From Monocercomonoides exilis PA203 (Eukaryota > Protista > Preaxostyla): 64,000 nucleotides of DNA. Positions 2,355 through 47,798 of the stretch are shown here, piece after piece. Where the stretch lies: the NCBI GenBank assembly GCA_001643675.2, contig LSRY02000007.1, positions 1,054,001 through 1,118,000 of the forward strand, given 5' to 3'. Numbering within the stretch: the first letter of the stretch is position 1; every line of letters starts with the position of its first letter. The notes under the pieces were generated by a model, which saw only the letters and a program-made list of their open reading frames with translations, ran no database searches and had not been told where the DNA came from. The translations under genes were made by a program, and so were the position numbers.

Positions 2355-2930
2355 GATAAAGGTCTCCGGAATCAATATTAATTTGTTAAGGGTTATCAAA
2401 GAAAAAGTGGGGTAAAATTCTTGCATTTATGAAAAAAACAACGATTTGTTCCATTCTTTTTCCACAACCTTATCATGATAAGTCTTTCATTCCCGTGTTG
2501 AAAAAAGAAGAAAATTTTGAAAAATGATAAAAATATTTGAAAGTGAAGAATGGAACAAAATTCATAAAACAAAAAAGTTCGTCCCAAGTATCAAATTAGA
2601 ATTTAGAGTCATTCGCTTGAAAAGATGATACATAAAATTATAATGACTTTCTATCTATTTTGCAAGAGAGTGCGGAATAAAAAAAAGACGTTGTGAAATG
2701 ATTTTTTGTAAAAACAAAAGAGAGTTTTCAAAAATGAAAAAAACAAATAATGAAGTGATATATTTAATAAATATGTTAATAAAAGATTTGCCTCATCTTT
2801 ATTGCCAATAATTAACAATGATTTTTTGATTTTGCTTTTTATTACAAAAAATTTGCTGTAATAAAGTGAAATTGTTCTATTCATGCTCAATGCCATACAT
2901 GAAAAAATTGTAAAAAGTCAAAAACATTTT

Positions 2931-5900
2931 CTACTTCAGGCTTAGCACACGAGACTTATCTTCTTTTGACAGGTTTGTATGTTCATAGCAATTATCATTT
3001 GCATTATCTTTGTCTTTATCATTCTCTTTATTACCATCCTTGAAGAAATCAACTCCATCATCCAGAAGTTTTTGAGGCAAAAAAGTTTGTGTAGCATTCT
3101 CCTCTGCCGTTGCCTTTGGCGTGTAAATATATCCCTTTCCATACCCTTCTTTCTTCATCAGCGTCGTCGGTGCATTTCTTATATGCATCGGCACGGGCTC
3201 TGCCCTGTGTGTCTCGCAATACTCCTTCGCCCTGTTGAATGCATCAATCGCTTCTCTGCTTTTTGGAGCTCTTGCCAAGTAAACAGCAGTCTCTGCCAGC
3301 GCCGCATCACACTCAGGCATCCCCAGCCTCTCTGCCGCATCAAAACAGGCAACAGCCAGCGTCAGTGCAAAAGGGTCTGCTAATCCAACCTCTTCTGCTG
3401 CCAAGAAAACAAGCAGACGAGCAATAGAACGAGGAGTTTCTCCAACCACAAGCAGACGAGCAAGAAAGTAAATAGTTGCATTTGAATCACCCTTTTTAAT
3501 GGCATTGCTCAGTTCTGTCATGAAATCGAACTGATAGTCTGGGTTATTGTCACTGAAGGAGAGAAGAGGGAGCTTCAGCCATTTGGCTGCTGCAGACATT
3601 GTGATGCGGATGACTGGATGATAAGGGCATATGCAATGTTTGATAGGCAATGAAGAAGAAGATACTGAGGATGGATCAGGTGATGAAAGGGGATTGATTT
3701 GTGTTTGCTCGATTGAACAAATATTTGTGTCATTTGGAGAAGAATCCAATGAATGTGGTGTTTGTAATGTGGATGGTTGCGAAATGGAAGAAGTTGAATT
3801 CTCATTCTGGTTGATTTTATTTGGATGAAATGAAGAAGAAGAAGAAGAAGAAGAAGAAACTGAAGCCGTTTCATAATTAGAGGCTGATGATGAAATGGAT
3901 GTGGTGAATATAGAAGAAGCAGAAGCAGAAGAAGAAGAAGAAGTTGATGATGATGATGAAGCTTGTTTTCCTTCGTTTGATTCATTTGTTGGCATCTTAA
4001 CAGAAATTGAAGGTGATAATGTTGAAACCATTGGCTTCTGAATGCTTGAAGAAGAATAAGAAGTTTCAGATGGCTCATTTTCAATGATCTTTATAGGTGA
4101 AATAAGAGGCTCGCTAAATGAATCAGGAAAATCTTCAGATATTTCCATTAAATTTCGCCTCATTTTCTCCGTCTCTGAATCTTCGTTGTCGTTATTCATA
4201 TCATCATCATCAATATCGATAATATCATGTTCTTCTTCTTCTTCCATTTCTTTGTTTGATTTCTTGACTTCCTTCTGATTTTCAAAGTCTTCAGCTTTTC
4301 CAATTTGTTCATCAGAAAACATTTTAAAGGTATCTTCTTTGAGGTCTGCAGAAATATTAATATTCGTTTTATTATCTTTTTCAAGATTTTGTTCTGATAT
4401 GTGATTATTTATTTTTTTCTCCTCCTTCTCAAGCAACATTCCATTTTCATTTTTCATTTCACCAAATTTCATTTCTTTCTCTTTCTCTTCCATATCACTT
4501 TTTCTCTCATTTGCTATTTGCTCTCCATTATTTACCTCCTTCCCCACTCTTTTCTCCACTTCCTCCTTCTCTTCCTTCTCTTCCTTCTCTTCCTTCTCTT
4601 CCTCCTTCTCCTCCTCTTCTTCTGTCTTGAATGGTGCCACTGTCTCTTCAAGCAGTGCATCCAGTGCTTCTCTGAATGGCAGCACAGACAGCATTCTCCG
4701 AGCATCGCTCTCTGCAAATCCCAGTTCAACAAGCTGCTGCACCTCCCGCGGGCGATACGGCCGGACAGAGGAAGAGAAAGCAGAGCGGAATTTTGTGGGA
4801 GAAGAGAGGCTGCGAGAGGAAACGGGGCTTTTTGAGGAGGGGAGGAAAGAGGCGGGAGAGGAAAGAGGAGGAGAAGTTGGATGTGCAGATGTTGGAAGAG
4901 GTGGAGAGGAGAAAGAGGAAGGAGTTGTTGAGTTGCGCGATGGTTCATTTGAAAGCAGAGAATTGGATGACTTTGCAATTGAATCGTGCTTTGCAGATGT
5001 AAATGTGGATTCAGCATTTTTCCCTCCTGAAATCTCATTTTCCTTTAAACTTTCCCACATTTTCCTTCTTTTCGATTCGACTTCTTTCTCTTTCCTTAAC
5101 TGTTCATTTATGAGCATCTCTTCTTTTTCCCTCAAGAGCCTCTCTTTCTCTTTCTCGGCCTCGTTCCTTCTGACCTCTTCCAATCTTTTCTCTTCAATCA
5201 TTGCCAGTGCGTCCAGATGCGCTTCTCTCCACAGCCAATGCGTCCTTTCCCTCAAGTCTGACATCGACTGCTTGAACAGAACATCCAAATAACCTAAGGC
5301 TGTTCGGCAGTCACCGTTGCTTTTCTCTGAAATTGCATTGAGAACTTCTTCCTCACACTCAATTGTAATCATGCGGCATGAAGGGCACGCGTTAAATAGA
5401 GGAGGAATCGTAGCATCCAGAATGCTTCCTTCGCTGATGCTGTCACTTTTCTTCTGTTCATCAGCTTCCGGAGACTTTGGAACTTGTTTCTCATTAACTC
5501 CAGAATGCATTAATTTTTTATTTTGCAAAATAAGCTCTTTCTTATTCGGAAGCTGTTCGAATGCTTGACAAATAAATTCTGGAGAAATCTTTCTCGAAAA
5601 AGGATAAAGCTCGGTTTCGTTTGTAGCAATTGGGGTATGAGAAAGAACTTTAACCCCTCGTTGAAGCACTGTCAGCATGTCATTTTTATCTATTTCTTTC
5701 AAATGAAAAACTTGACATCTCGAAAGAAGAGCATTATTAATGCTGAATGAAGGATTTTCAGTTGTCGCACCAATTAGCGTCAACGTGCCAGCTTCAACGC
5801 ATGGGAGGAAAATATCTTGTTGTAGTTTGTTAAAACGATGTATTTCATCAAGGAATAAAACTGTAGCTTTCCCAGTAGTCTTTAGTCTCTCTTCCGCTTT

Positions 5901-6289
5901 CAATATCATGTTCCTTATTTCAGGAAGTGTTGAAGTCACTGCAGATGTATGAATAAAATGTTTTCGTGTTCGTTTTGCAATTATGTGTGCCAAAGTCGTT
6001 TTTCCACTTCCAGGAGGTCCCCAAAAGATGATTGAAAACGTAGAATCACTCAGAATTAATCTGCGAAGAACTGTTCCTTCACCAACGATATCTCGTTGCC
6101 CAACGAATGAATCCAAATTATCTGGTCTTAATAGAGCAGCCTTCAATATAAATTTTGTGAAAAAAAATCAAAAAATAAACAAATTAAAATGTCAATCTTT
6201 AAATTACAGATTCTCTTAAAAATTCATACAAGAGGAGTTTTAAGAATGTCTATACGATTTACATCTTTTTTTGGATTAAATTTCTCCAT
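2931..6289 (-). CDS. WRNIP1: WRNIP1/Mgs1/RarA family AAA+ ATPase with large low-complexity insertions and a UBA-like motif
   Basis: PLAALLRP..L..FVGQ, Walker A GPPGSGKTT, Walker B LFLDEIHRFNK, GATTENPSF, ALLSRC, C-terminal EEVGLADP, GMPEC and VPMHIRNAPT..MK..GYG.GY. Exon 1 6289-6230, GT-AG intron 6229-6141. Confidence 0.93.
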
Positions 6290-6680
6290 GTTTGTTATAA
6301 TAAATACAACTATATTCACTTAAAAGAACAAAATGATAAATATCACAAAATTTATTAAAAATATGGGTAGTTCCTTTCCAATTTCAAAAAATGAATATTT
6401 TTGAGAAATATTATGTTTCAAAATATGAATATGAGCTCATGTTCTCAGTTCAATCAAATTCAACTAAAAAAATTAAAACTTCTATTGATTTTTATTGTTT
6501 TAAATAAAGATTGTTTTTTTTTTTTTTCCCACAAATGTCATAAAAAGTTGATTTTTTTCTTTTTTTGTTGAATATAAAACAACCTCATCATTGTCTCATG
6601 TTTTTTAAAGAAGTTAACACATGTCTTTTCAATCATTCAATCGATCAAAATAAAGCATTATTTTATTAATAAACAGAAAA

Positions 6681-8842
6681 ATGGCAGATACCTCTTTAAA
6701 GGATGGAAGTGAAGAAAAAATAAATATTAAAAAAGAATTGCTTCCTATCCAAGATTTTTTGATGTCAAGAACAGCCTTTGAACTTGTTCCAGATAGCGGA
6801 AAAGTTATTGTGATAGATTTCAACTTAACAATAAATCGAGCTTTTCTTGTACTCCATGAAAATGGTTTGAAATCGACTAATTTATAAATTCCATTTTTTG
6901 ATATTATTCTTTACAGGAGTGACATCCGCTCCACTGTGGGATGTTGAAAAGGGGAATTTTGTCGGAATGGTCACTGTGTCAGATTTTATTGATATGTTTG
7001 TTTACTATTACGATAAGGACGCACAAAATTTTGAGCAACTTTTGAGAACAGTTACAATAAGGCAATGGAGGCAACTCAGAAAAAGGGAAAGAAAAATTAT
7101 GGAGTCTTCAAAGTCAGAAGGAAAACCTCCAGATGTTCCTGTGAATCTTCAAATTGGTTTGATAATAGATGTTTTTCATTTTGATTCTATATTTTGTTAT
7201 GCTATTTTATGAATTCTCTATTGATTCAATAAGCTCGTCCTTCTTTTGTGACCTGTCATTATGATGCATCATTATTCAACACCATTGAACTTCTTCTTCA
7301 GTATCGTGTTCATCGTTGCCCTATTTTTGACTCTAAAACGTATACTGTTTTGCATATTGTAACTCATGCGAGACTTTTAAGATATTTTGTTTCGAAGGTG
7401 TACAATTATTTAAGTTTATAATTTCATCAATTAGCATTTTTCACTTCCACTCTCTCTCTCTCTCTTTATTCCTTCCCCTCAATCTCTATCTCTATCTCTC
7501 AATCCGTTATATTCATTTATTATGTATTCTTCAACGTTTATTTTGAAATTTCTAAACAATTCTCGTTCGCAAACAGTGGCAAAAAGAAACTCCGATTTTG
7601 AATAGGACTTTGAGAGAGTTGAAAATTGGTACATATGAAAATGTTGTATCAATGTCACCGCAAAGCACTCTATATGACATGTTTAAGCTACTCTCTTATA
7701 CGTCAATTTCTGCGATTCCACTTGTTGATCAAGAAAGTTTGCATTTTTTCTTTTCTTTTCTTTTCTTTTCTTTTCTCTTCTTTTCTCTTCTTTTCTCTTC
7801 TTTTCTTTTCTTTCTTTCTTTCCTTCCTTCCTTTTTTTTTTTTTTTTTTTTTTTTTTTTGTGATTAATTTTTTGCCAATAATAATTTTTAATTAATCATT
7901 GTCAATCTCTTTTTTATTCTTTTTTTTTATAATTTCTAACTATTTCATCTTAAATTTTTATGAACAATGCATATTTACATTTCTTCAGATGTTGTTGTTG
8001 GCCTTTATTCCATGAGCGATGTGAGAAATCTCACAATTTCTGAACTTGTACATTCGTTTCATCAGTCAGTTGGCAGCGTTCTCAGAAGAAAGATGAGAAA
8101 ATCTGCTTTGTTCACAAATGCCGAAAGAGAAAATGAATTCATGAAACATCAGCACATCAATGCTCAACCTTCGTCTCATATGAAAGAAAGTAATGAAAGC
8201 TCTCTGTCTTCTACTTCAACTTCTTCTTCTCCTCCTACTTCTTCTTCTTCAACTGATACGACTGCTTCTTCTTCTACTTCTCCCACAACAGCCACTATTA
8301 CTACCACTTCATCACAAACTCCGCTTTCATCATCGTCAACAGCAACACAAACTGCATCGGAATCTCCGTCATCATCTTCTCCTCCTTCTAATTCTTCTTC
8401 TTCTTGTAATTCATCGTCCTCTTCTTCTTCAAATAAAATAACCGAAGTTTCAGAAACTGAGTCCACAGAAGCAAGTTCAGCAGAAGCTCCATCATCCAAT
8501 TTGCAATCTGCTTCTTTCACTCCATCTTCAGTAGCATCATCATCATCAACAACGACACAAACACAAACACAAACACAAACACCAACCACAACAAGCCATT
8601 CACTTCTTAATCCTTCTTTGACATATTCCTCTTTGTCTTCTCCAACCCCATCAAATTCCACTTCCCCCGCACGTGATGTGTCTTCCATGGTTATCACATG
8701 CACTGCTGATGACACACTGAAAGTGGTGCTGGCCAAACTGGCGAGGCATAACATTCATCGGCTGGTTGTGGTGGATAAGCAGATGCATCTCGAAGGAATC
8801 TTGTCTGTAAATGATATTCTTCGCTTTTTTGTTATGCAGTGA
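6681..8842 (+). CDS. SNF4: AMP-activated protein kinase gamma subunit (CBS domains), spliced, with a ~200-aa Ser/Thr-rich insert
   Basis: FELVPDSGKVIVID, SAPLWD..KGNFVGMVTVSDFI, RVHRCPI, LHIVTHARLL, LKIGTYENV, SAIPLVD, ITCTADDTL..V...LARHNIHRLVVVD..HLEGILSVNDILRF across about 5 exons separated by GT-AG introns. Confidence 0.9.
7744..7860. repeat. Intronic pyrimidine microsatellite (TTTTC)n/(TTTC)n/poly-T
   Basis: Directly visible in the sequence. Confidence 0.85.
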
Positions 8843-9594
8843 TTGAGAATTGAGAGAGACTTTTTAATATGGCTGAATATGTACAAATTTGGTATTTATA
8901 CGGAAATTGTCCATTGCAATCAGAAGGAAATGCTATTTGAGCATTTTTTTATGCAATTCATGTTTAAATGATAATCATAAATTTTCATTTTTAATATTTT
9001 ATGTAATGCATTGTTCTATTCAGTTGATTTTTATCTTCCAAAAGAATTGTTTGATTTTATTGCTTTTTCAAGTTGTTGTTATGATAAATTAACGACATTT
9101 TTTGTTGCATCCTTTTATTTTTCTCGCTTATGAGAAAATTTTATTTCTAGAGAGAATTTTAAAAGGAGAACGCCAACATCTTTAAGAACTGTCAGGAAAC
9201 GTTCGATTTTCAATTAGTCATTAGAAATTTTATCTTTTAAAAAAAGATTTGAAATTATTTTGAATTTGTACTTTTGTAGATAGGACAAAATACTTTCATT
9301 CATGAAAAAAACAATGATTTGTTCCAAATTTTTTCTGCATTCTTTTCAAAATTATTCTAGCATTTTCATGGAAATGGATAAATATACAAAAGTTGAGAAA
9401 AATCTTTGAAAGCATTGAACTGAATAAAATTCATAAAGCAAAAAATTTCTTCCCAAATAATTGATTATCAACATTTTGAAATAATTATGGTTATAAGAAT
9501 TATTTCCTCTTGCACTATTCAACGATACAGACTATAGTGGATTATAACGCACTTAAAAATTAAATAAATTTTTCATTTTTAATCTTTTTGAAAA

Positions 9595-12404
9595 ATGAAT
9601 AGCCTTTCTACTTCTTCTTCGTCACGGGGCTCAATGGTTTTTTAATTGTTATCTTATAATATGAATTAATTTATAAGACGCTTTCTATTTCTTTTCGTTT
9701 ATATAAAATCTTATTTTTATTTGATTTAATTTTCCTCTTTGCAAATTTGCAAACTGATCTCTAGATTTTTGATTCTTCAGCTTATCCTTCAGATTCTTTA
9801 TCTAAATCAAGTTTTCAGCCATTTTTTCGTGTTCATTCCATGGATACATCATCTTTAATATCAAAAAGTGATAAGCATTCCTTTTATCAGAAGAGTTATG
9901 AACCAGAAAATCAACAGTTTAGCATTAAATATGTGAAAGATGGTTTCTTTCCTTTATCTTCATCTGGGTGTGCTGATGCATCAGGAACAAGTGAAAGCAA
10001 TAACATTACTTTTACTAATTCACAACTGCAAGAAAAGCTATTATCAAACGCGGACAAGCCTTTCTCAAATTATGCTGAAAAATCAAATAGAACAATTAAA
10101 CCTTCGCTGGACTTTTTATCCGAATCTATTTCTTCAACGCAAACACCTACAAATTACAAGCCATGTGAAAGAAATCGTATTGAGGAAAAATTGTTGTCCT
10201 CCAGTAATCATTTGCATTTGCTTTGTTGCTTAAATAATAAAAAAGATTTCAATAGTTTATCAAAAGAAGATGGAAAATTGAGCGCAAAACAAACAATTTC
10301 CTTGCCCGTGGAGAATGAAGAAAGCAAAGGCAAGACAGAAAAAGAAATTATGACATATAAAATGTTTGCAGAGTTTGGAAAAGCTTTAAAGGAAACACAC
10401 AGTCATATCAAAGAAGAAAAAGAAAGAAGTATTTCAAATAGAATGTCAATAACAAATAACGACCAAGAATGTTTGAAAGAGGATTCACCCATTCATCAAA
10501 AGCCTTTTCAGCTATCAAGTGATATTTTAGATGAAGAAGACATTGGTTATGAACAGGAAGAGGATTTATCAACCAAATCGTATTCTTCTTTATCTTCAGC
10601 ATGTTCATTTTCCTCGACTTCAACTTCACATTTTGCGCTTGATCCACATTTAGAACAAAACCTTACAAAATATGAGCCGTGCAGGAACAGATTGGGCGAA
10701 TTCTGCCAAGATTTTGACATTAAAGTTGATGGAAGTTCATTCTCACGAATTTTAACTGCAAGACAGTCTGACATGACAAGCAAGTGGAGGAAAGAAGACG
10801 CCGAACTTACAAAAGAGATTAATTTCAACTCGGAGCTGTTGAGATCAAAATTGAAATGTACGGACGCAGAAAATGAAGCGAAAGGAGACGATGGCTCTGT
10901 GAAAGGAAGCGATTATGATGATAGTGAAGCATTACCAAATGTTTTAAATGAAAGTCGCATTTTATCAGTAGAACGTATCAAAACCAAGAATACATGTAAC
11001 TTTTCTTCTTTCAATGTTGAGTGGGAAAAAAAGCGGTCTACGATTGTGAAAAGGCAAATCAAGGAGGCGGTTCGATTTTTGAAAGTATTTGGTGTGTGGG
11101 TTAGAAAAGAATGGATAAGAGATGAGAAAGAATCTCAAATGTGGAATCATGCAGAAGAAAAATATTTGAATAAATTGAATAATGTAAAGAGAAAAGATGA
11201 GCTTAGAAATGACTCTGCTGTACGAAACAATTTAATTGGGCATGAAAGCTCGAATAACTCAAGAATGCAGGAAAAAAGATTTGAGCAACTGGACACTGAT
11301 GAAACTCTTGAAGAGCTGAAAACAAAATTGAAAGTTGGAGATTTTTCAAGTTCGGCCCCAGGCGAAAAAGAGAGATTGTTAATGTTGATTAAGAGAAAAG
11401 AAAAAAAATTATTGAAAAGAGAAAAAGAAAGTTGCATGAGTAATGTCGAAAAATTGGATGCAGCAATCCAGAAGCAAATAGAAACTCACCAAAATAAGGG
11501 ATCGTTGTTTGGCTTGTTTACTTTTTGCAGAAAGAGTGATGATAAACAAAGTTGTTTCCGCTCAGATATGAAAAACGAATTGAAGGGAACAGAAAAACGT
11601 GTAAATCAACATAGTTTGCAAGACAAAGAATATCTGAACGAACAATCATTACTTCTTTCTCGGATGAATCAGCTTATATCATTGGAAGCAAGTAGTGCAA
11701 AATCAAGTTGTTCAAATATTACAACTCATGCTTCTTCAGCAGAAAGATTGTTAAAAGCGGCCGAATTATTTCAAAATAAAATTTTAAGAGAAAATTTGGA
11801 TTTGGAAACATCCGCTCCGACGGCACATCATGTTATTAATCCATCAAGTGTTCGTTGTAGTGAATCTGAAATTGTCAAAGATTCAGTGCTTGATCCGGAA
11901 GAATATTTACGGAGATTTGCTGATCCGATTTTAAGTATAACAAGAAGAAAAAGGCTGCGCAAAAGGGGAATTTTGGGAGATTTGATGACTGATCAACGAA
12001 ATCTGCAAATGTTTTTTGTAAGAAAGAACTTATGCATAATTGTTCCATTTTCTTCCTTTTTTGGAGATTTCACTTGCACGCATGAATCAAATGATTGGAG
12101 TGGAATTAGTTTATTGAATACAAATAATTATTCAAAAAGGAAAAAACGATCATTGAAAGATTCTTTTAAGGCGATTAAGGAAGATTTGATTTCTTCACTT
12201 TTTTTAATCCAAACGAAAAATGTTGAAGAATACCCAACTATCCAAACAAATATAATGGAGAAAAAAATGAAAAGGATGCAATTAAAAAAAGAAGCTCATG
12301 AATTTCGTTTGACAAACCGCAGTGACCCTGTTATCTTTACAATTAAAGATTCAAAACTTCAGCAGCTTAACCCTTCAATTACTTTAAATATTTTAAATAA
12401 TTGA
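9595..12404 (+). CDS. Hypothetical protein (~890 aa); probable short first exon 9595-9636 and intron to 9764
   Basis: 854-aa ORF 9840-12404 whose frame stays open upstream to an AG at 9763-9764, with an in-phase ATG exon at 9595. No recognisable domain. Confidence 0.6.
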
Positions 12405-12659
12405 GTTTTAATAAAAGTTTTTGATTTGTTTTCCTCTTTTCAATGTTGAACTTTTTCTCTTTCAAATGAAAATTTTCAGAATTGGTTGTATTGCCTTTAT
12501 CTTTAAATATTTGTTTGATGTTAAAAGAAATAACAAAAAAAGAATTTATTTTTTTGAAAAGTCACTTTTGTTCAGTATTTGAGTGAAGAAAAAATGACTT
12601 TTCATTCCAATTTTCACTAATCAGCAATTTTAATAAAATGTACCTCTTGCAAATATTTC

Positions 12660-12875
12660 AAAAAAAAGAAAGAAAGAAAGAAAGAAAAACGAAAAAGAAA
12701 AAAAGAAGAAAGAAGAAAGAAGAAAGAAGAAAGAAGAAAGAAGAAAGAAGAAAGAAGAAAGAAAGAAAAGAAAAGAAAAGAAAAGAAAAGAAAAGATAAA
12801 GATAAAGATAAAGATAAAGATAAAGATAAAGATAAAGATAAAGATAAAGATAAAGAAAGGAAAGAGAAGCGAAGA
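12660..12875. repeat. Compound purine microsatellite (AAAG)n-(AAGAAAG)n-(AAAAG)n-(AAAGAT)n
   Basis: Directly visible tandem units. Confidence 0.9.
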
Positions 12876-13205
12876 AGGAAAATATAAAAAAGAATTTCAT
12901 ATGAGTATAGCTTTTTTAAAAATCGAAACAGTTCAATTTTCAGTTTCATTGAAATCTAGTATAATTTCAACAGATCTTGTTACAAATTTATCAAAATATT
13001 CCAAAGTGCATATCTTTGCCTGTTGGAAATTTTTCATTATCATTATTTGTTACAGTGTGATATATGGATGCTTTTTTTAAAAATCATAACTTTTTTTGTT
13101 GTGTTGACCATTAAAAGACATTATTTGTCAGGATAGTGTTTATTCAATTTTAAAAAGTATTCAAGTGAACTTTAAAAAGGGACAACGTTTCAGATAATAT
13201 TCAAG

Positions 13206-14303
13206 AGAGATATGGTATATCAGCTATGGATCCATCTCGATTAGGTCAATCAATAAAATCGATTTATGAATATCTAGTGGTTGTTATCATCTTGTATAAT
13301 AAGTTGAATAGGCAATGATAATAAGATAGAGATCATGAGGAGATTGCTGATAATCTTAGGGGTTTCTCATGATTAGATATTCAGTGATGTTCTATTAAGA
13401 TGGAGTTATTGATAGGTGTAATCGAGATATATCCATAGCGGGTATACCATATCTCCAAGGAGGAGAATTAGCTAAAACATTAACTGGAAGATTAACTAAA
13501 TTTATGTTCAAGTTGGTAAATTAGTGGTGAAATTGTGTGAAAATTGGTGTTTTCGTTGATGAAATACATGAGTCAAACATGAGTCAAACATGAGTTGAAC
13601 ATGTGTCGAACGTTGATAAAATCGTTGATGTGATCATTGGTGAAATCGTAAATAAAAATAATTGATTTTGTTTTTTTGTTTTATCGTAAATGGGTCGGAA
13701 GAAGATATACGCAACTGTTGAAGAAGCGAAAGAGGCTCAACAGAAACAGATTAAACAGTTTCAGGAAAAACGAAAAGAAGAAACAAAGTATTACAACGAA
13801 CATGTAACTGAGAAACAGAAGAAGTTGATTAAGATATTGAGGAGAAAGGTTATCGAAAGTGATGAGTTGTTAGATGAGTTGATGGAAAAAGTTAGTGGTT
13901 ATTGCCTGCACAGGCTTGATAGGGCAAAATGTGTTAATTGATGAAATATAACAAGTGGTTCACGTTTGTTGTACAGTTAATTATTTCAAACAGTGTCCGC
14001 GATGACGTTATAGTTGATTGCCAACAACAATATTTTTGATTGGAAAAGTGTAAACCGGTAAACTGGACACCGGATTGTGGCAATGTCTGAGGCTCAGCGG
14101 AAGGGAAATATTGAGTTAAATCTCCGTGCTGGAAGCGTGTCCACGTGTCCAGGTGTCCAGGATAGTTTAATTTCATCTGAAAAGAGCTGCCAACATGCCA
14201 TTTCTGCCAACATGAGCAATTTACCCCTAATTTACCATGATTTTGAGGGTTATTATTTATTTTCGATTGTGTTATCATTTTGCCACATTGCCACATGACA
14301 TCG
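13206..14303 (+). repeat. Left terminal inverted repeat (~1.1 kb)
   Basis: Reverse complement of 17091-18068 (near-identical), plus a diverged outer ~120 bp matching 18135-18200 and 18628-18692. Confidence 0.92.
13690..13941 (+). CDS. Small basic 83-aa protein (MGRKKIY.T.EEAK, coiled-coil), putative DNA-binding; copy 1, inside the left TIR
   Basis: ATG-initiated ORF after an A/T-rich leader, K/E-rich helical composition, identical copy in the right TIR. Confidence 0.7.
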   Translation: MGRKKIYATVEEAKEAQQKQIKQFQEKRKEETKYYNEHVTEKQKKLIKILRRKVIESDELLDELMEKVSGYCLHRLDRAKCVN

Positions 14304-14414
14304 CTTGTGGTATATAACAGGTGGCACACATCAGTTGTATCGTCAGTTGATAAGAACAGATGTTTTGGCTGGACCAGGTTGATGGGCCAGGTCATGTGGG
14401 TGATGATGTGGTGT

Positions 14415-14527
14415 GGAAATATTGAGTTAAATCTCCGTGCTTTTTACCTGGACTGGGTGGACCGGGTGGACCGGGTCAATTATATTCTACAAAATATGTG
14501 GGCAAACGGGCAAACAGGGCAATTGGG
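14415..14527 (+). promoter_or_regulatory. Putative origin/promoter region: 27-bp direct repeat, TGGAC repeats and a G4-type motif
   Basis: GGAAATATTGAGTTAAATCTCCGTGCT at 14104-14130 and 14415-14441; GGGTGGACCGGGTGGACCGGG; GGGCAAACGGGCAAACAGGGCAATTGGG at 14500-14527. Function is inferred. Confidence 0.4.
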
Positions 14528-14662
14528 CAAAATACATTTAATGTGAAAATTCACTGTTCCCCGTCAAAGTTCGACATTAACCTCAACATCATCTTCCCCG
14601 AAATATTCGTTTCAAAAATAATTCTGTTTCAAAAAAAAATTTGTTTTTTTTTATTTTATGAA

Positions 14663-17077
14663 ATGACAAACTCCCCAACAGACACTGACAACGTAATCCA
14701 ACAACCAATTGATTCAATGGAAACAGAACAGATAACGGTGGGAGAACGAATGAAAGATCACATTATTGACTTGTTCGACTACAAGAAATACTCTGACAAG
14801 AAGCAGGGTCAACGACACACTGGAACAGCTGTCGATATCAGCAAATGCGAGGATCTCTGTGTCGTTGATGTTGATATTAACAAATCCCTTCAACCTGAAC
14901 AAACGAAAACCATCAGGAATTCCATTCTCGACAAACTCCCCCGAAACATCGGACTTGTACAAACAGCTCATGGTGGTCTTCACATTTATTGTGAGCTGTG
15001 TGGTTATCCCCTCAAATGTTCATCACAAACCAAAGTGTTCACGAGTCCAGAGAACGATATCGACATTTTTGCAGGTTTTGGGGATGGAAAACAGAGGCTT
15101 GTTGTTCAAGCTGACTCTTCATACAGAGAGATGAAAGATGGCAAGAGAATCATCACCAAATACATTTCCCTCAACAATCACAGAGAGCTCACAGATCTTT
15201 CATCACTCGAAAGTGTTCTTGACGTATTCGGTATTGACCTCAAAACAGAGAATACATCAGCGACAATTGCAGCTGAACCATACAATCTTCTCACACAAGA
15301 TGGCGTCGTTGATATGTCTCCAACTGTCGCTCTTGCTCTTATCGATGGACTCAAAGATGTTGAAATACATAACGATACAGGTTCTCTGTCACTTGATTCT
15401 GAGTTAACTCTTTTACCGTTATTTGCAGCTCTCAACTCTCTCGTCAACATTAACGGTTTCGACAACCAATTGATAGATTTTCTTTACAATCAGATCAAAG
15501 AAACAGCTGCTCTTACAGCAAATGCTATCACTCACTTTGAAGAAAAACGAAACAGGTACAGAGACAATAAGTCACATCCATTTGTTCTTCAAAAGATTGT
15601 CAAGAGATGGAATCCAACATATTACAACGATGTGATCATTCCACTCCTCAGAAAAGAGAATGAGCAAAAGGAAGAACCTCCACGAGAGATTACTGTTCAT
15701 GAAATTGATCTCAACTCATCGTTCTCATTCTCTGAAATCAGGGATAAAGCTTGTCGAAAACAATACTCCACACTGTCGGAAGTTGCCGAAGATCTCACAA
15801 AAGTTCTGAGGTTTGTTGAAACAAAGATGGAATTCATTGTGAAAGAGTTTGACATTCACACCTCTTGTTATTCAATTACATTCAAGACAAAATCAGCAAT
15901 GTACGAACTGTTCAAAACAATAAAACTCTGGCATGATGACAAAAAGACTCTCACAGTTGAGACAGCTTTCGAACAATACTCACATGTTCTATCGATCGAT
16001 GGGGTGAAGTTCTTCTCAGATAACCCTCGAATATTCTCTTTGTTCCATGGGTTCAAATACCAAATGGCAAACGAACAAAATGACGAAATCATCAAACCAT
16101 TCCTCGATTTCACACGAGAAGTTATTGCCAACAACAACGATGAACTCTTTCAATACATCCTCTGTTGGATTTCGTCAATTGTTCAAAATCCTGGTAAAAA
16201 AGCAGAAACATCACTTGTTCTCAAAGGTTTGCAAGGTATTGGAAAGAATGTCTGGACAAATGTTCTTGCTGAACTGTTGGCAGGATATTCACGTCCAAAT
16301 GTCACAGAGATTGCAGAACTGACAGGACAGTTCAACTCCATCGTCGAAGGGAAAATGCTCATCGTTCTTAACGAATTGAAGAATGTTGGAGATGATCGAA
16401 CAGCTAACGTTGACGCATTGAAGAGTATTATCACAGATTCAACAATCAGAATCAATGAGAAGAATCAGCCAAGAAGAACAGCTGAGAACGTAGCTAATTT
16501 CATATTTGTGACAAATCACACATACCCAGAAAAAATTGAGATTGGTGACAGAAGATATGTTGTTTGTGATTGTAACTCAAAATATAAGAACAATCTCACA
16601 TTCTTCAAGGATTTCACCAACTCTTTCGACAATGAATTCTATGAACAACTTTTCTGTTATTTTCTCAGCAAAGATCTCACCAATTTCAACACAAGGGCTA
16701 TTCCAACAACTGAGACAAAGGAAGATATCATTGCAGCATCACTCTCTGTCATCGATGTGTTCTGTCAGGAGCATTACAATAAACTCAAAAAAGGGTGGAG
16801 ATGTTCCGAAGCATTATGTTTCAGACCAGTTGAATACAGGAACGATCATTCATTCCAACCAGCAATTAAAGACAGATGTAAGCGCAAGAGAATGGGTGGA
16901 AGAGACGGACGAGTGTGGTGTTATAAACTTAAACCAGAGTATGAACAGCTCCTCAAACGACGAGAATATGTAGATTACATGGACTGTTCTGTGGAAATCA
17001 ACAAAACATATTCGTTTTTTTGGAAATCATTAATACACAAACTATGCAAAAAGTGTGTGCCACCAACGAATAAATAA
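14663..17077 (+). CDS. Primase-polymerase (AEP/PrimPol-type N-terminus) fused to a D5/NrS-1-like superfamily 3 helicase, 804 aa, intronless
   Basis: AEP motifs VVDVD, QTAHGGLHIY and DIDIF. SF3 motifs Walker A GLQGIGKN, Walker B LIVLNE, motif C FIFVTN and DRRY arginine finger. First in-frame ATG at 14663 within ORF 14498-17077. Confidence 0.9.
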   Translation: MTNSPTDTDNVIQQPIDSMETEQITVGERMKDHIIDLFDYKKYSDKKQGQRHTGTAVDISKCEDLCVVDVDINKSLQPEQTKTIRNSILDKLPRNIGLVQTAHGGLHIYCELCGYPLKCSSQTKVFTSPENDIDIFAGFGDGKQRLVVQADSSYREMKDGKRIITKYISLNNHRELTDLSSLESVLDVFGIDLKTENTSATIAAEPYNLLTQDGVVDMSPTVALALIDGLKDVEIHNDTGSLSLDSELTLLPLFAALNSLVNINGFDNQLIDFLYNQIKETAALTANAITHFEEKRNRYRDNKSHPFVLQKIVKRWNPTYYNDVIIPLLRKENEQKEEPPREITVHEIDLNSSFSFSEIRDKACRKQYSTLSEVAEDLTKVLRFVETKMEFIVKEFDIHTSCYSITFKTKSAMYELFKTIKLWHDDKKTLTVETAFEQYSHVLSIDGVKFFSDNPRIFSLFHGFKYQMANEQNDEIIKPFLDFTREVIANNNDELFQYILCWISSIVQNPGKKAETSLVLKGLQGIGKNVWTNVLAELLAGYSRPNVTEIAELTGQFNSIVEGKMLIVLNELKNVGDDRTANVDALKSIITDSTIRINEKNQPRRTAENVANFIFVTNHTYPEKIEIGDRRYVVCDCNSKYKNNLTFFKDFTNSFDNEFYEQLFCYFLSKDLTNFNTRAIPTTETKEDIIAASLSVIDVFCQEHYNKLKKGWRCSEALCFRPVEYRNDHSFQPAIKDRCKRKRMGGRDGRVWCYKLKPEYEQLLKRREYVDYMDCSVEINKTYSFFWKSLIHKLCKKCVPPTNK

Positions 17078-17452
17078 TGTGTACCACCGACGATATCATG
17101 TGGCAATGTGGCAAAATGATAACACAATCGAAAATAAATAATAACCCTCAAAATCATGGTAAATTAGGGGTAAATTGCTCATGTTGGCAGAAATGGCATG
17201 TTGGCAGCTCTTTTCAGATGAAATTAAACTATCCTGGACACCTGGACACGTGGACACGCTTCCAGCACGGAGATTTAACTCAATATTTCCCTTCCGCTGA
17301 GCCTCAGACATTGCCACAATCCGGTGTCCAGTTTACCGGTTTACACTTTTCCAATCAAAAATATTGTTGTTGGCAATCAACTATAACGTCATCGCGGACA
17401 CTGTTTGAAATAATTAACTGTACAACAAACGTGAACCACTTGTTATATTTCA

Positions 17453-17704
17453 TCAATTAACACATTTTGCCCTATCAAGCCTGTGCAGGCAATAACCACT
17501 AACTTTTTCCATCAACTCATCTAACAACTCATCACTTTCGATAACCTTTCTCCTCAATATCTTAATCAACTTCTTCTGTTTCTCAGTTACATGTTCGTTG
17601 TAATACTTTGTTTCTTCTTTTCGTTTTTCCTGAAACTGTTTAATCTGTTTCTGTTGAGCCTCTTTCGCTTCTTCAACAGTTGCGTATATCTTCTTCCGAC
17701 CCAT
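17453..17704 (-). CDS. Small basic 83-aa protein; copy 2, inside the right TIR
   Basis: Translation identical to 13690-13941. Confidence 0.7.
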   Translation of the reverse strand: MGRKKIYATVEEAKEAQQKQIKQFQEKRKEETKYYNEHVTEKQKKLIKILRRKVIESDELLDELMEKVSGYCLHRLDRAKCVN

Positions 17705-18200
17705 TTACGATAAAACAAAAAAACAAAATCAATTATTTTTATTTACGATTTCACCAATGATCACATCAACGATTTTATCAACGTTCGACACATGTTCAAC
17801 TCATGTTTGACTCATGTTTGACTCATGTATTTCATCAACGAAAACACCAATTTTCACACAATTTCACCACTAATTTACCAACTTGAACATAAATTTAGTT
17901 AATCTTCCAGTTAATGTTTTAGCTAATTCTCCTCCTTGGAGATATGGTATACCCGCTATGGATATATCTCGATTACACCTATCAATAACTCCATCTTAAT
18001 AGAACATCACTGAATATCTAATCATGAGAAACCCCTAAGATTATCAGCTATCTCCTCATGATCTCTATATTATTACCATCACCTATTCCAGCTTATTACA
18101 CTAAATGACTACTACCATCAGATATTCATAAAACGATCTCTATCATATAACAATTGCCTATTCAACTTATTATACAAGATGATAACAATTATTAGATATA

Positions 18201-18627
18201 CAATGAAGTTCGGTTGTAATCACATTCGATTTTGCACGATTTTTTGTGATTATTACCGAACTTGATTATAACCGAACCATCTTTTTCATTGAAAATTTTA
18301 ACTGAAATAATTTTTTATGATGAAGAAAAGTATTTTTTCAATATTTATTGAAATCCACACATTTGTTTCAATTTTTCAATTTTCAATGATTCAATGTTCT
18401 TTATTGTTAATAATAAAGCAGAAAATAACAACTTTCATTTTTTCAAAAATTTCAAAATAGACAGAAAAATACCCATTATTTTTTAAAAATTGTGATTATT
18501 CGCGATTTTGGTGTGATTATAACCGATGAAATTTCACTGAAAAAATGCTTAATTTTTTGATGCGAGAAAAAATGTGATTATTCGCGGTCTTGATTACAAC
18601 CGAGGTGATTATGACCGAGCTTCACTG
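18201..18627. mobile_element. Tc1/mariner-pogo-type MITE (427 bp) with a TA target-site duplication
   Basis: TA|CAATGAAGTTCGGTTGTAATCAC ... GTGATTATGACCGAGCTTCACTG|TA (23-bp imperfect TIR, ~19/23), internal GTGATTAT..CCGA subterminal repeats. Removing it restores alignment to the left TIR. Confidence 0.85.
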
Positions 18628-18829
18628 TACATAAATAGATAATATTGATAGACCTCATCGAGGTGGATCCATAGCGGGTTTACCATATCTCTAAAGGCAA
18701 AATGCGAAGTTGTTAAAATTTTGTATTTCTTCGAAACCCAGGCAAAGATTACCAATTGAGAAATTCATTGGTTTGCAAACATATTTGAATTCGAATTAAA
18801 TTCATATACTTGTGTTTGAAGAAATGTTT

Positions 18830-24284: not shown

Positions 24285-24865
24285 TGAATTATCATTCGAC
24301 ATTTCCAATTATCTTGAGAATGCTTAAATAACGAAAACTCATTTGTTTTTTTCACTTCAATTTTCATTTTTTTCATTTTTTCATCATTTCGTTAAAATAA
24401 AAATCAGAGAATGAAAGATATATTGATACATTTGTTTCATATCTTTTAAATAGGGAAAAAAAATTCAAAAAGATAATTTAATAATTCAAAAAGAAGAGTT
24501 ATAGGAAGATTCATGTTTATTTTGATTCAGGAGGTGCTTTTCTGTTACGATAGCCTCTTCAATTTCGCCTGTAAGTGAATGATAATAAATTGTTCTAGGG
24601 CATTCCAAAATACTCCCATCAAAAGTATTGCACTCATCTTTGTTCATTCGCATAATTCCTCTGCTTTCAGTGAAAGTGAATATTTTGAAATGAAGAAATG
24701 ATTCTTTATAAGCAAGATTGATTTTGAGCTCCATCCTCAAATTATCTTTTTATCTTTTGTTTTGATCATTATTCCAGTAAAAATCACAACAGCTCCAAGT
24801 GCCACTGACTTGCATGATCCGAGAAGGAAGATTTTGTTCGCTTATAGAAGTGAAAAAATGAAAGG

Positions 24866-25861
24866 GTCAACTTTTTAATGGGACTTTTTCCTTAATTGGC
24901 ACTTTTTTTGTTTTTGCTTGCAAAATATCGAGAAATGAGAAGTAGTTTTCAGCATTTTAAAAATCCTTTTTAACAAGTTTAATTCCATTTATTTACTGTT
25001 TTCATTTTTATTTTCGTTTTTTACACATCGAGAAATTTCGTTTTTTTGTTAAATTTAATAGTACTTTTTCTAGCCAACTGGGAATCGCTCAAGAAATTGG
25101 GGAAATGTTTTGTATTGCATTTGCTTCGAACTATTAATCTTAAAAAAATTTTTTTTCACAAACACTTTTTTCTTGATTTTTTCGCATTTCAAATTTTCAT
25201 CAACATGATAACATAAAACTGTTTATTTCTTTATCAATATGGGTTTTTTTTTTTTTTGACAAGTCACAAATGTTTAATTTTTAAATACTTCAAAAATTAC
25301 AAATTTTGCTAAACATTTTGTTTGCAAATATCAAACTTCACTTAAATGGAATCTATGAGTTGATAATGCTATTTCAAACATTCATAAAAAGATTTGTGAG
25401 CTGAAACAGAAATTTGAGCCAAATATGAAAATTTTTACATATTTAAAAATTAAACATTTGTGACTTGTCAAAAAAAAAAAAAACCCATATTGATAAAGAA
25501 ATAAACAGTTTTATGTTATCATGTTGATGAAAATTTGAAATGCGAAAAAATCAAGAAAAAAGTGTTTGTGAAAAAAAATTTTTTTAAGATTAATAGTTCG
25601 AAGCAAATGCAATACAAAACATTTCCCCAATTTCTTGAGCGATTCCCAGTTGGCTAGAAAAAGTACTATTAAATTTAACAAAAAAACGAAATTTCTCGAT
25701 GTGTAAAAAACGAAAATAAAAATGAAAACAGTAAATAAATGGAATTAAACTTGTTAAAAAGGATTTTTAAAATGCTGAAAACTACTTCTCATTTCTCGAT
25801 ATTTTGCAAGCAAAAACAAAAAAAGTGCCAATTAAGGAAAAAGTCCCATTAAAAAGTTGAC
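24866..25861. repeat. Long inverted repeat/foldback element: 422-bp arms (24866-25287, 25440-25861) and a 152-bp spacer
   Basis: The arms are reverse complements with a constant coordinate sum of 50727, and no mismatch was seen by eye. Non-coding, no TSD found. Confidence 0.92.
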
Positions 25862-26574
25862 ACTATGTCGATGATGAATCCTCTGCCTGAGAAATAGGTA
25901 ATTTTCATAATGCAGCGAAAGGATTCTTAAATACATTAACTCCGTATTTAATTATTCATATTAATCAATGGATTGTTCTCTCAGCTCATTTTTCAGTACA
26001 ATTTCAAATACTATAAGTCTGTAAATCGATTCATATTTCATCGTCAAAATATTGAACTTTATTTTCTTTGGAATTTAACGTTTTGAAATCTTTATTGAAC
26101 AGCTGCCTGTAATTAGTACGCCTTCGAGGATAATTCTCTTTCCTCATTGAAGTTAATTCAATTTTCTCACAATTATTGTGCAATGGCATTTTTTCAAAGT
26201 TGTTTGAATCTAAAAGACTTATCAACTGCTTCTATGTGTAAATATTTAAATAGACATTTTTATTCATTGTTTAAAAAATTAATTATCCTGTTAGGAACGA
26301 AAATAAACGAGATAATTCAAACAATAGTTGATTGCAATTCTGTAAAACCCAATTCAACATTCCTTCAATATGTTGGTACATTTGAATGAAACAAAATTTT
26401 GTAATGTCATGTCGTTTTTTCTATTCATATTTGTTCTTTTTTGAAGAAAAAAAGAATGATATTGTGAAAATAAGAAGTGTTATGGTTGAAATAAATAAGA
26501 AATGAAAATCTCGGAAATTAGGAAACAAAAATGTGCACATTTTCATTTTGGTTCTTTTTTCAACTGAATAACCT

Positions 26575-31224: not shown

Positions 31225-34123
31225 TCAAATATGAAGTAATGCTTCCAAAGTTTGTAAGCTAATCGAGTTTCTTTTATCTCCAATTATGTTTTTGATTTTT
31301 GAAATAATTCTCTCGCAGCTTGCTTCGCTGCATTGAGATAGGATTAGTGATAAACATAAGCCTGAATACAACGATTGGAGATTACCAAACTCAGCAATAA
31401 CATTGTAAAAGATTTCTGTATCTTTTTCGATTATTTCTTCTGGCTTCGATTTCATTTGATTTTCAAAGAACAACTTACAAGCAGTTATAGAATTGTTTCC
31501 ATAATCTTTAAGCACACTCCGAGCATAATTAGTAAATGATCTGTCAAGTCGAGGAAACCAGTTTGTGTATAGCAAATTTTGTATTTCTTGCAAAATAGTT
31601 TTTTCTTTCTCTTCGTTGAATTCAGTACATAAATCTATTTTCTTTGTTGAAAATAATTCCTGTACGTCTTCTTCGTCTTCATCTTGAAACGTCTCTTCTC
31701 CAGCTATGCTGCATGCACAATGAAATGAGTCATTTCTCAATTCAGTATCGATATCTGAAAAATGTTCTGAAGAAGAAGAAGAAGATCTCAAAGTCGGCGA
31801 GATGGAAGAAGAAGGAGATGTTGATGATGACGCAAAATCTTCCCGTATAAATGAAGAATCTTCTGTTTCCAATTCCTTACGTAATAAACAATCATATACA
31901 TCATTAATTGCATCGTTTTCTGCTTGTGCTAGTCCAAATTCGTCGCTTTCTTCGCTTTCACTTTCTTCCAAACCCTCCAATTCACCAATTTTCGTTAAAT
32001 CATCTTTTTCTTTTTCTTCAATTTCTTTTATTAGTTTTTCGATCTCAATAAATTCCTCATTTTTATTTTCCAAACCTAAAAATTATAAAAAAAAAATTAA
32101 AAAGATAAAGAAATATTGATTGCAAACTGTTGCTTTTAATTGATGAATTTTGTTTGTCGAAGCAAACTTGTTTTCTTTTAAGCATTGAAAGATCATTAGT
32201 ATCATGAGCATCTTCATTCATGAAGGAAGTTGATGAATAGAAAGAAAACATATTTTTTGACACAAAATATGTTTTTTCCGAAATATCTAATGGAAAAGGA
32301 CAAGGATGAAAAATTGAAACAGGGAAAGATTGAGGTTGATTTAACAATGTTGTTTCACTTTCATCGGATTGTTGAATTGAACACCCCAATGGAAAAGAGG
32401 AAGAAAGTCGAATTCTCGGAAATGTTTGCTTTCTTAATAGTTGTATTCCTTCTCGTGTTAAAGAATAAAAAAGGAACACGTACTCCCCCCGAATTCCTGT
32501 TAAAAAATAATTATGTAACAAAAGAATAACGTTAGCGATTGCGTTGTGCCATTTTGCATCTTGAAACAAATGATGCTTGGAAATATAAAATAGATAATCA
32601 AATGAATCGAGGAAATAAGGAAACACTTGACAAAGCTATGTTCTGTCTTTTTCAAACTTTAAATGAAGATTCTGTAGAGGGAAAAGCAACAACTCAGTTT
32701 TGATGATATCAAACTCACTTGAATAATCGATAAATTTTTCATTCACAACTATATCGAATTTTTTCCTTATAAATGAAGAAATATTGTAAAAACTCATCCA
32801 TCTTGTTGTTACGAATGAAGGAATGCGCTTTTTCAAGAGTGTTCTGACTGATTTAGAATGGGACCGCTGTGCAAAATCTGGCAACTTTTGTTTGATCGAA
32901 ATCAAGAATGGTATTTTTGTAAAAGCATTTGTGATGACCAAATTTGTTAGATGGTTGCAGCAATGAATATGAATCGGATTAAATGAATGTTTGTTGATTT
33001 CGATACTTCCTGAGCAAGTTTTTTCGAACTCAGAGAATTGAATAATTGCCTTTTTCTGTGAAGAAAAACCATCAGTGCAAAAACTTCTGATTACTGCATT
33101 AAACAAACGAAACTCTGAAATTAATTGTTGAATGAATATAAAAAACTCTAACGTTGTTCCACACGATTCATAAAGACCCCAAAAAAACGGAGAAGAATTC
33201 AAAGATAAAATAGAAACATTCACCACCATGAACTTTTTATTAGCGGCAGTTGCTCCATCAAACATTACGCTTATTCCCTTGTTTGAAACTTTTTGCCTTT
33301 TTTCCTTCTCTTTGTCAGTTTTAGCATTGATGATCAAATGAGAAATTTTCCTTCGTGTTAAATATGGGAAAATCGAAAAAGGTGAAATAGAAGGATTTGC
33401 TTGACCTGCTCGAATTAAAGAAAATATGAATGTTTTAACTTCCTTTGAGGATGAAGACAAAAAGGAAGCATTGCACCTCCCAACCATCGAAATAAACTGT
33501 TTTTCCAATTCTTTGGGTGAACAATCTCGTTCAAATGATATAGAGAGCTCTTGAGAACTTTTGGTTATGGGTAAATCTATCTGTTTTTTGAAATTCAAAA
33601 ATTCTCGAAAACTCAGCAAATCGCATTTGTGATGTTTAACAATAGAATAATTCTTCCTTCCTGATATGCCACAAGCATATCCATCCTTGGATACAGGGCA
33701 AAGGAAATACTTGTGACAATCTTTCCCTGTATATCCATTTTCGTCCGTAATTACATAAGTTATCCAAAAATTATCTTCCAACAGTTCAAATTTGAGCTTT
33801 GATATATATTCATTTATCTTTTTAGGATGAACGAACACTTGGAAAAATTAACAAAAAATGAATCTTGAATATTCTTTTCAAATATAACGTTAACCTGTTC
33901 CATATTTTGAGTTAATGCGTTTTTGAAGTTGAACAAAAGTGCACTTCGCTTTTTCCATTTTCTTTTTCATTGTTTCATACGCTTCTTCCTGCAACAAAAC
34001 AAATACAAAATAATATATTTTATCAAATGCATTTTTGAAAAAGCAAACAATTAGAGGGTTATTGAGGCTCGAAACCAACTCATCAGGCAATTCACTTTGA
34101 AAACCTTTCGACAGTATTTCCAT
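31225..34123 (-). pseudogene. hAT-superfamily transposase with ~3 introns and one in-frame TAG (32636-32638)
   Basis: N-terminal Cys/His finger (CPVS..YAC...KHHKC), SVMFDGAT, FCTDG, HIHCCNHLTNL (CxxH), VTTRWMS, LFPLQNLHLKFEKD, C-terminal SEASCERIISKIK..IGDKRNSI dimerisation motif. ORFs 32636-33838 and 32063-32626 share a frame. Confidence 0.85.

Positions 34124-43339: not shown

Positions 43340-47798
<4,459 letters not shown>

Follow-up and report, generated by a model that had tools for sequence, protein, structure and literature searches.

Transpovirons of mimiviruses are small, capsid-less elements that are bounded by terminal inverted repeats (TIRs), carry one large replicase-helicase gene and are thought to derive from polinton-like viruses (PLVs) by gene loss. 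They exist as ~7-kb free linear DNA in giant-virus particles, and their large gene fuses a superfamily 1 (SF1) helicase to an inactivated protein-primed DNA polymerase B (pPolB) (PMC5499653). Mavericks/Polintons and metamonad (MMN group) PLVs are elements of 12-40 kb with long TIRs and AG...CT ends that encode pPolB, an integrase, an ATPase, a protease and a capsid protein (PMC8097293, PMC10120064, PMC6431247). In vertebrate Mavericks the TIRs measure 46-1447 bp and the ends read (AG)3//(CT)3 or (AGT)2//(ACT)2 (PMC8097293), and an integrated PLV without a detectable integrase of its own has been noted (PMC11296320). A preprint of October 2026 describes one repeat-bracketed element carrying only an archaeo-eukaryotic primase (AEP) and proposes that genes joining an AEP to a superfamily 3 (SF3) helicase are mobile (bioRxiv 10.64898/2026.10.13.758929). 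Here we analyze an element of the oxymonad Monocercomonoides exilis PA203, located at 13206-18692 of a 64,000-nucleotide stretch of contig LSRY02000007.1 (positions 1,054,001 to 1,118,000, hereafter the window), whose only large gene encodes such an AEP-SF3 protein.

The element belongs to a multi-copy family with long, hairpin-ended TIRs and one precisely defined terminus. With about as much confidence as doubt, we propose that this is a family of dispersed ~5-kb elements reduced from a metamonad Maverick/PLV, which kept the ends and the primase-helicase and is integrated by a helper in trans. The features of the locus are as follows (positions in the window; strand where one applies; ORF, open reading frame):

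13206..18692: whole element, 5487 bp, or ~5.0 kb without a nested miniature inverted-repeat transposable element (MITE) and a duplication; termini AGAGATATGG...CCATATCTCT; no target-site duplication (TSD)
13206..14345, + strand: left arm (TIR), a gapless match to 14312 that is degenerate to ~14345
17049..18692, - strand: right arm (TIR), from the arm-to-arm alignment
13206..13456: left terminal hairpin unit, 50-bp stem (42/50 paired) between the terminus and its internal inverted copy
17938..18692: right terminal hairpin unit, 41/50 paired, interrupted by the MITE and a ~70-bp duplication
13346..14298: 953-bp tract identical to 17096-18048, a putative conversion tract from right arm to left
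13690..13941, + strand: basic, predicted helical 83-aa ORF with a GRKK start, copy 1
17453..17704, - strand: identical 83-aa ORF, copy 2
13993..14158: cluster of five GGACAC copies in both orientations, candidate iterons
17236..17401: mirror GGACAC cluster in the right arm
14449..14531, + strand: two arrays of 8-9-bp direct repeats upstream of the large ORF
14663..17077, + strand: intronless 804-aa ORF, AEP prim-pol plus SF3, the last ~29 aa being read-through
18199..18629: nested MITE, 431 bp, TA-bounded, with 25-bp TIRs (21/25), an unrelated later insertion

The two arms are 99% complementary over 1007 nt (13306-14312 against 17082-18088), and within this region 13346-14298 is a perfect mirror of 17096-18048, with 100% identity over 953 bp. 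Toward the outside, the similarity of the arms continues at 85-88% as far as 13206 and 18692 when the MITE and the ~70-bp right-arm duplication are excluded, and the outermost ~140 bp show ~15% divergence between left and right. Each TIR of ~1.1 kb contains an ORF and ends in a 251-bp palindromic unit. The non-repeated core of ~2.7 kb is occupied by the 2.4-kb ORF and leaves no space for a pPolB gene. In the read contigs described below, a loose end behind 17025 is part of the evidence for the left arm, loose ends lie behind 18629 and a joint from 18185 to 18630 bypasses the MITE, the ends of which we take to be Tc1/mariner-like. Family scans (Pfam and PHROGs for the two element ORFs, NCBIfam for five frames) returned no match to an integrase, transposase, recombinase, pPolB, packaging ATPase or capsid protein, and Rfam returned no match. 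A preliminary description of this DNA had reported ~1-kb inverted repeats around a single large gene, an identical inward-pointing 83-aa ORF in each arm, no recognizable gene of these mobility, replication or packaging classes and no clear TSD. All of this is borne out here. Its account of the large gene holds for the 804-aa ORF and its motifs and needs correction at the end, where the last ~29 aa overrun the end seen in two other copies; the 251-bp unit was absent from it.

When the locus is compared with the known systems, it fails membership of each on the defining genes. It has the long TIRs of Mavericks/Polintons and lacks pPolB, an rve integrase and, at this copy only, a 6-bp TSD; its ends read (AG)2//(CT)2, and the Maverick end motif was defined on vertebrate elements. 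It shares AG...CT ends and an intronless gene with Mavericks and metamonad PLVs, and the same primase-helicase family adjoins integrase-, ATPase- and pPolB-like genes in relatives, as in a Maverick/PLV. However, it is 5 kb rather than 12-40 kb in size and has no ATPase, protease or capsid gene. No ORF of the size or family of a major capsid protein (MCP) or A32 packaging ATPase, as expected of a PLV or virophage, is present in the element. Instead of the SF1/inactivated pPolB fusion of transpovirons it encodes an SF3/DUF5906 helicase with an AEP N-terminus whose motifs are intact, and it is dispersed in a nuclear genome, with 1.1-kb arms that bear an ORF and hairpin ends. The closest analogy in function would be a transpoviron equipped with an AEP-SF3 enzyme, and the element would be a nuclear, primase-based counterpart of transpovirons. 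The AEP-SF3 cases of the preprint (10.64898/2026.10.13.758929) likewise lack an integration gene and are proposed to be mobile, but they are single examples in PLV arrays or repeat-less genes of Bodo saltans virus, whereas the family described here has many chromosomal copies, long TIRs and a defined terminus. The concept of mobile AEP-SF3 genes has already been hypothesized in print. For this family we found no description in the accessible text of the literature matches listed, including PMC8767320, PMC6759080, PMC6431247, 10.64898/2026.06.19.733378 and 10.1101/2024.03.23.586382. The family gives the hypothesis that replication modules of PLVs can move as separate elements a concrete example, with many copies and precise boundaries.

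The 804-aa ORF encodes an AEP prim-pol fused to an SF3/DUF5906 helicase. It consists of a prim-pol domain (aa ~25-197), a helical linker, an SF3/NrS-1-type helicase (aa ~480-690) and a predicted winged helix (aa ~694-768). Residues 520-631 match PF19263/DUF5906 above the cut-off (E 2.3e-21), and a profile search against the PDB retrieved the phage NrS-1 helicase (E 1e-24). The prim-pol domain had no Pfam match; a model of the N-terminal domain superimposes on the prim-pol of pRN1 ORF904 (1RO0) with a Z of 10.0 and a root-mean-square deviation of 3.4 over 151 residues, and Prim-Pol clusters ranked at 0.95 in the ESM Atlas provide a separate line of evidence. The C-terminus of the model matches winged helices with a Z of ~6. 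These comparisons used an alignment-based model with a mean pLDDT (predicted local distance difference test) of 62, in which most of the N-terminal domain scores 70-90; a single-sequence model of that domain was unusable (pLDDT 33.5), and Foldseek against the PDB gave nothing at E <= 0.001. The helicase assignment rests on sequence because the helicase core (aa 510-646) is poorly modeled. Among 30 aligned relatives, H107 is present in all and D134 in 29 (AEP motifs DxD, H, D), while G527, K528, N570, E571, N618, R630 and R631 are invariant (Walker A/B, motif C and arginine finger). The AEP fold and SF3 helicase predicted in the preliminary description are thus supported by structure comparison, profile search and motif conservation. 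The enzymes of pRN1 and NrS-1 (1RO0/1RNI, 6K9C/6K9E) have the same prim-pol fold, DxD/H/D motifs, DUF5906-type SF3 helicase and C-terminal winged helix, but they belong to an archaeal plasmid and a phage, are only ~20% identical in the prim-pol domain, and have no ends or lifestyle shown to be in common with the element.

The layout is not confined to this locus. Eight further M. exilis proteins are 86-94% identical to the primase-helicase and lie on contigs of seven distinct sizes. We mapped contigs assembled from four DNA runs onto the element. In run X2 the unique left flank has a summed depth of 71 and the first positions within the element, at 13206, one of 11,736, and contigs exit at exactly 13206 into differing flanks (12, 8, 6 and 3 contigs in the four runs, agreement ~0.5). 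At least five joints, among the 15 of 51 listed, connect the ORF end (16879-17070) with an inverted arm (14330-14466), each at single-contig depth in three or four of the four runs; two further opposite-strand joints are deletions within an arm and were left out of this count. Two diverged contigs also read through from the ORF into an arm. The joints and the read-through contigs indicate that the layout is a trait of the family. The summed contig depth suggests tens of copies, although it is not a copy number. The M. exilis assembly lists 35% of its length as unclassified repeat, with imperfect polishing of multi-copy sequence (PMC8767320), and this element family accounts for part of that repeat.

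An artefact of assembly and a single local inversion that happened to enclose a stray primase gene, both named in the preliminary description as outcomes that would speak against a real element, can be weighed at this point. The 953 bp of perfect identity, the imperfect polishing noted above and the fact that no listed contig spans the whole element, the left-junction contig entering only 29 bases, would fit an artefact. On the other hand, contigs from two runs cross the right junction of this copy and show 0 mismatches, the arms share private variants and yet differ in their outer 140 bp, and other copies have the joints and read-through contigs just described. Together with the sharp terminus, this evidence largely refutes both the artefact and the one-off inversion, to which we assign a negligible probability. 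The picture of a multi-copy, TIR-bounded element with an AEP-SF3 protein as its only large gene and no integrase is upheld by the additional copies and the terminus at 13206.

The ends of the element have a distinctive structure. The first 50 bp of the 251-bp unit recur inverted at its inner end, and the left hairpin folds with -46.1 kcal/mol (z -9.7 against 60 shuffles). In most copies represented by read contigs, T13440 and A13442 of the inner repeat form base pairs with the terminus. This copy has G at 13440 and 13442 in both arms, and two complementary changes are present on the right terminus and not on the left. The covarying pairs are 13220/13442 and 13222/13440, and compared with the majority type the right unit thus has two compensatory pairs. 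Since G occurs in both arms and the compensating changes occur only at the right terminus, we infer that the stem of the terminal unit occurs in two co-varying types. From the same mismatch pattern it is likely that the right arm served as template for the inner 953 bp of the left arm. Hairpins of this kind offer a possible way for a linear element to finish its ends when it has no protein-primed polymerase.

The 83-aa protein is possibly DNA-binding, as its GRKK start would indicate. It has no family above the cut-off (Pfam, PHROGs, NCBIfam) and one homolog, an 83-aa M. exilis protein with 81% identity whose contig is of the same size as one of the helicase-copy contigs; its best atlas match (0.89) is a lead only. 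A resemblance to the N-terminal extension in Streblomastix was considered and found no support (E 0.59). Summed read depth over this ORF (13690-13941) is 2-3 times that over the helicase. Joints such as 13903-14394 remove the inner arm, and other derivatives with these arms may exist. The GGACAC motif, a candidate iteron, occurs five times per arm against six times in the remaining 58.5 kb of the window, and four times within 200 bp past the stop codon of one relative (L002).

In a quick tree, the M. exilis copies group with a metagenomic protein and Streblomastix strix proteins with a support of 100, and the copies have short, star-like branches. Homologs in Streblomastix also lie on contigs of 15.8 and 56.9 kb. 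In the atlas, the structure cluster closest to the protein is 94% eukaryotic and mostly from Parabasalia. We examined the DNA context of four close relatives (L001, L002, L003 and L030). Downstream of the gene in L003 (34% identical; TAA/TAG read as Gln) lies an rve-like ORF (PF00665 E 1.8e-4, below the Pfam cut-off; IS481-type E 1.7e-5) without a homolog among 1,943 candidates. L030 (40% identical) adjoins an A32-like ATPase (PF04665 E 2.3e-3, below cut-off), a DUF4108 protein and an 837-aa ORF with pPolB motifs recognized by eye, which had no Pfam, PHROGs, NCBIfam or PDB match. L001 has a DUF4108 neighbor, and the single neighbor of L002 was assigned to no family. Relatives, 33-40% identical, that adjoin integrase-, ATPase- and pPolB-like genes place the gene in metamonad Maverick/PLV stock, and with a gene of that stock the element is most likely a reduction product of a Maverick/PLV. 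The preliminary description had listed a deletion derivative of a Maverick among the outcomes that would contradict it. The contexts of L003 and L030 come close to that outcome, while the minimal element without an integrase stands.

Some observations on the relatives are of interest in themselves. At 15-4082 of L003 there are a primase-helicase, a 188-aa ORF and the rve-like integrase, with an atypical-looking third catalytic position. L030 (1-9384) is filed in a bacterial metagenome-assembled genome and looks like a protist Maverick/PLV fragment, probably mis-binned. Neither three full-length alignments nor one protein retrieved a relative from IMG/VR, where a degenerate terminus pattern also had 0 matches. 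A helicase-only scan gave 26 distant loci (24-31%), of which the one examined (L004) is a virophage with a Sputnik-type MCP, in which a serine recombinase gene directly follows the primase-helicase (2605-13395). Gene-sized metagenome contigs were considered as evidence, with 22 of 27 full-length relative clusters found only on contigs of at most 5.2 kb (for one cluster, among the 15 of 35 members listed); this was rejected, as metagenome contigs are short anyway.

For the proposed reading, in which a reduced Maverick/PLV is moved by a helper, we infer the following enzymatic steps from the long arms, the single AEP-SF3 gene, the hairpins and the arm transfer. A helper rve-type integrase would recognize the AG...CT ends, excise the element and insert it elsewhere. 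Replication would take place on a free linear molecule: the winged helix at the C-terminus of the protein would bind the GGACAC clusters of both arms, the SF3 helicase ring would unwind the DNA and the prim-pol would prime and extend it, with one origin per arm. Lacking a protein-primed polymerase, the element would complete its ends via fold-back of the 251-bp units and arm-to-arm pairing, which would also homogenize the arms and shift their inner boundary. The family would have been amplified in a past burst and would now be decaying. For MCP, Bellas et al. list six hits in M. exilis against 820 in S. strix (PMC10120064, Tables S1/S4), and the M. exilis loci are possible helpers, although none has been identified with the ends of the element. 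The preliminary description had suggested a self-priming minimal replicon, possibly mobilized in trans. The AEP-SF3 replicase, the missing integrase and the multiple copies agree with this suggestion and mobilization in trans is probable; the suggestion is weakened in that the element is most likely a reduced Maverick/PLV, and the contigs gave no sign of an extrachromosomal form or of current activity.

Several points weigh against this reading. Integration by a helper rve integrase should leave a TSD, and the lack of one at this copy counts against it: there is no perfect repeat of 4-11 bp, and the best symmetric match is 3/4 (offsets of +/-3, one mismatch allowed). Decay, or recombination among copies, may explain the missing TSD. 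In the loci examined we identified no helper sharing the ends of the element, and no whole-genome search was made. The integrase, ATPase and pPolB assignments in the relatives either fall short of curated cut-offs or were made by eye, and in the quick tree the relatives near integrase or pPolB genes are not sisters of the oxymonad clade. GGACAC is absent from L001, L003 and L030, and the iteron idea is based on two sequences only. The four DNA runs come from one sample, possibly the source of the window itself, and all eight other M. exilis copies are shorter (320-669 aa). Of 19 listed ORF positions that differ from the read majority, 13 are non-synonymous and six synonymous, against a random expectation of 21% synonymous, and nothing demonstrates that the primase-helicase is needed for spread. 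In addition, residue 623 is acidic here and hydrophobic in 29 of 30 sequences. These features of the ORF, its overrun and the short branches fit a copy in near-neutral decay and a past burst followed by decay.

Other explanations can be considered. The primase-helicase could be a mere passenger of a plain non-autonomous Maverick deletion derivative, for which a helper pPolB and integrase do everything. The near-neutral substitutions, the shortened copies, the star-like short branches and the presence of relatives within pPolB/ATPase elements are all compatible with this. Yet the summed depth is of similar order over the whole ORF and all observed joints retain the gene almost to its end, while a 2.4-kb passenger would be expected to be lost more often; we therefore find this explanation highly doubtful. 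Alternatively, an autonomous integrase-free AEP-SF3 element could use its prim-pol to copy itself into chromosomal breaks from the hairpin ends without any helper. This would account for the absence of both integrase and TSD, for the compensatory pairs in the hairpins and, through template switching, for the variable inner arm boundaries, and such a mechanism has been proposed for repeat-bracketed AEP-only elements and the Bodo saltans virus AEP-SF3 genes (10.64898/2026.10.13.758929). However, ends that are exact to the base across many flanks are more readily explained by an end-specific recombinase than by repair of breaks, M. exilis has capsid-bearing elements, and a single TSD-less locus proves little in a decayed, converted copy. 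We consider such autonomy rather improbable. It is equally improbable, in our estimate, that these elements represent a class of eukaryotic DNA transposons that requires no integrase, transposase, HUH nuclease or capsid, and in which one AEP-SF3 enzyme together with long, hairpin-ended TIRs suffices to copy the element to new places in the chromosomes; if it were true, that class would also include the many relatives from gut metagenomes whose contigs are gene-sized.

In a composite or Pack-type cut-and-paste element, the 251-bp units would be MITE-like transposase-binding modules served by a host DDE transposase, and the primase-helicase would be captured viral cargo. Each unit does have its own 50-bp inverted ends, the left one is bracketed by AAG on both sides, and the genome holds other MITEs and fold-backs; the start GAGATA presumably resembles the TIR of maize Mu. 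But the TIR of ~1.1 kb includes an ORF and is not solely the unit, no 9-bp TSD of the Mutator/Pack type is present (lengths up to 11 bp were tested), and no loose end occurs at 13456 among the 24 of 162 rows listed. Depth also persists beyond the unit (9,827 at 13462-13479 against 13,695 at 13444-13461 in X2), a profile that counts against many solo 251-bp units. We regard a cut-and-paste origin as unlikely.

Other repeats and genes are found elsewhere in the window. Close to the left end of the element, a short multi-copy fragment at 13052-13110 has a TACAGTG motif nearby; 9-12 contigs have loose ends at 13062, and the fragment is probably the end of another MITE. A non-coding 1-kb fold-back at 24863-25864 (461-nt arms, 97% complementary, 80-nt spacer) is unrelated to the element and has no 7-11-bp TSD. 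A 403-aa open frame at 32636-33847 on the - strand has no Pfam match at E 0.01; by eye, its CxxH and TRW motifs look like those of what we take to be a hAT transposase. Ordinary host genes at 2931-6167, 44681-45655, 52971-53633 and 56136-57071 encode an MgsA/WRNIP1-type ATPase, an MCM subunit, a G-patch protein and a GT25 glycosyltransferase, respectively.

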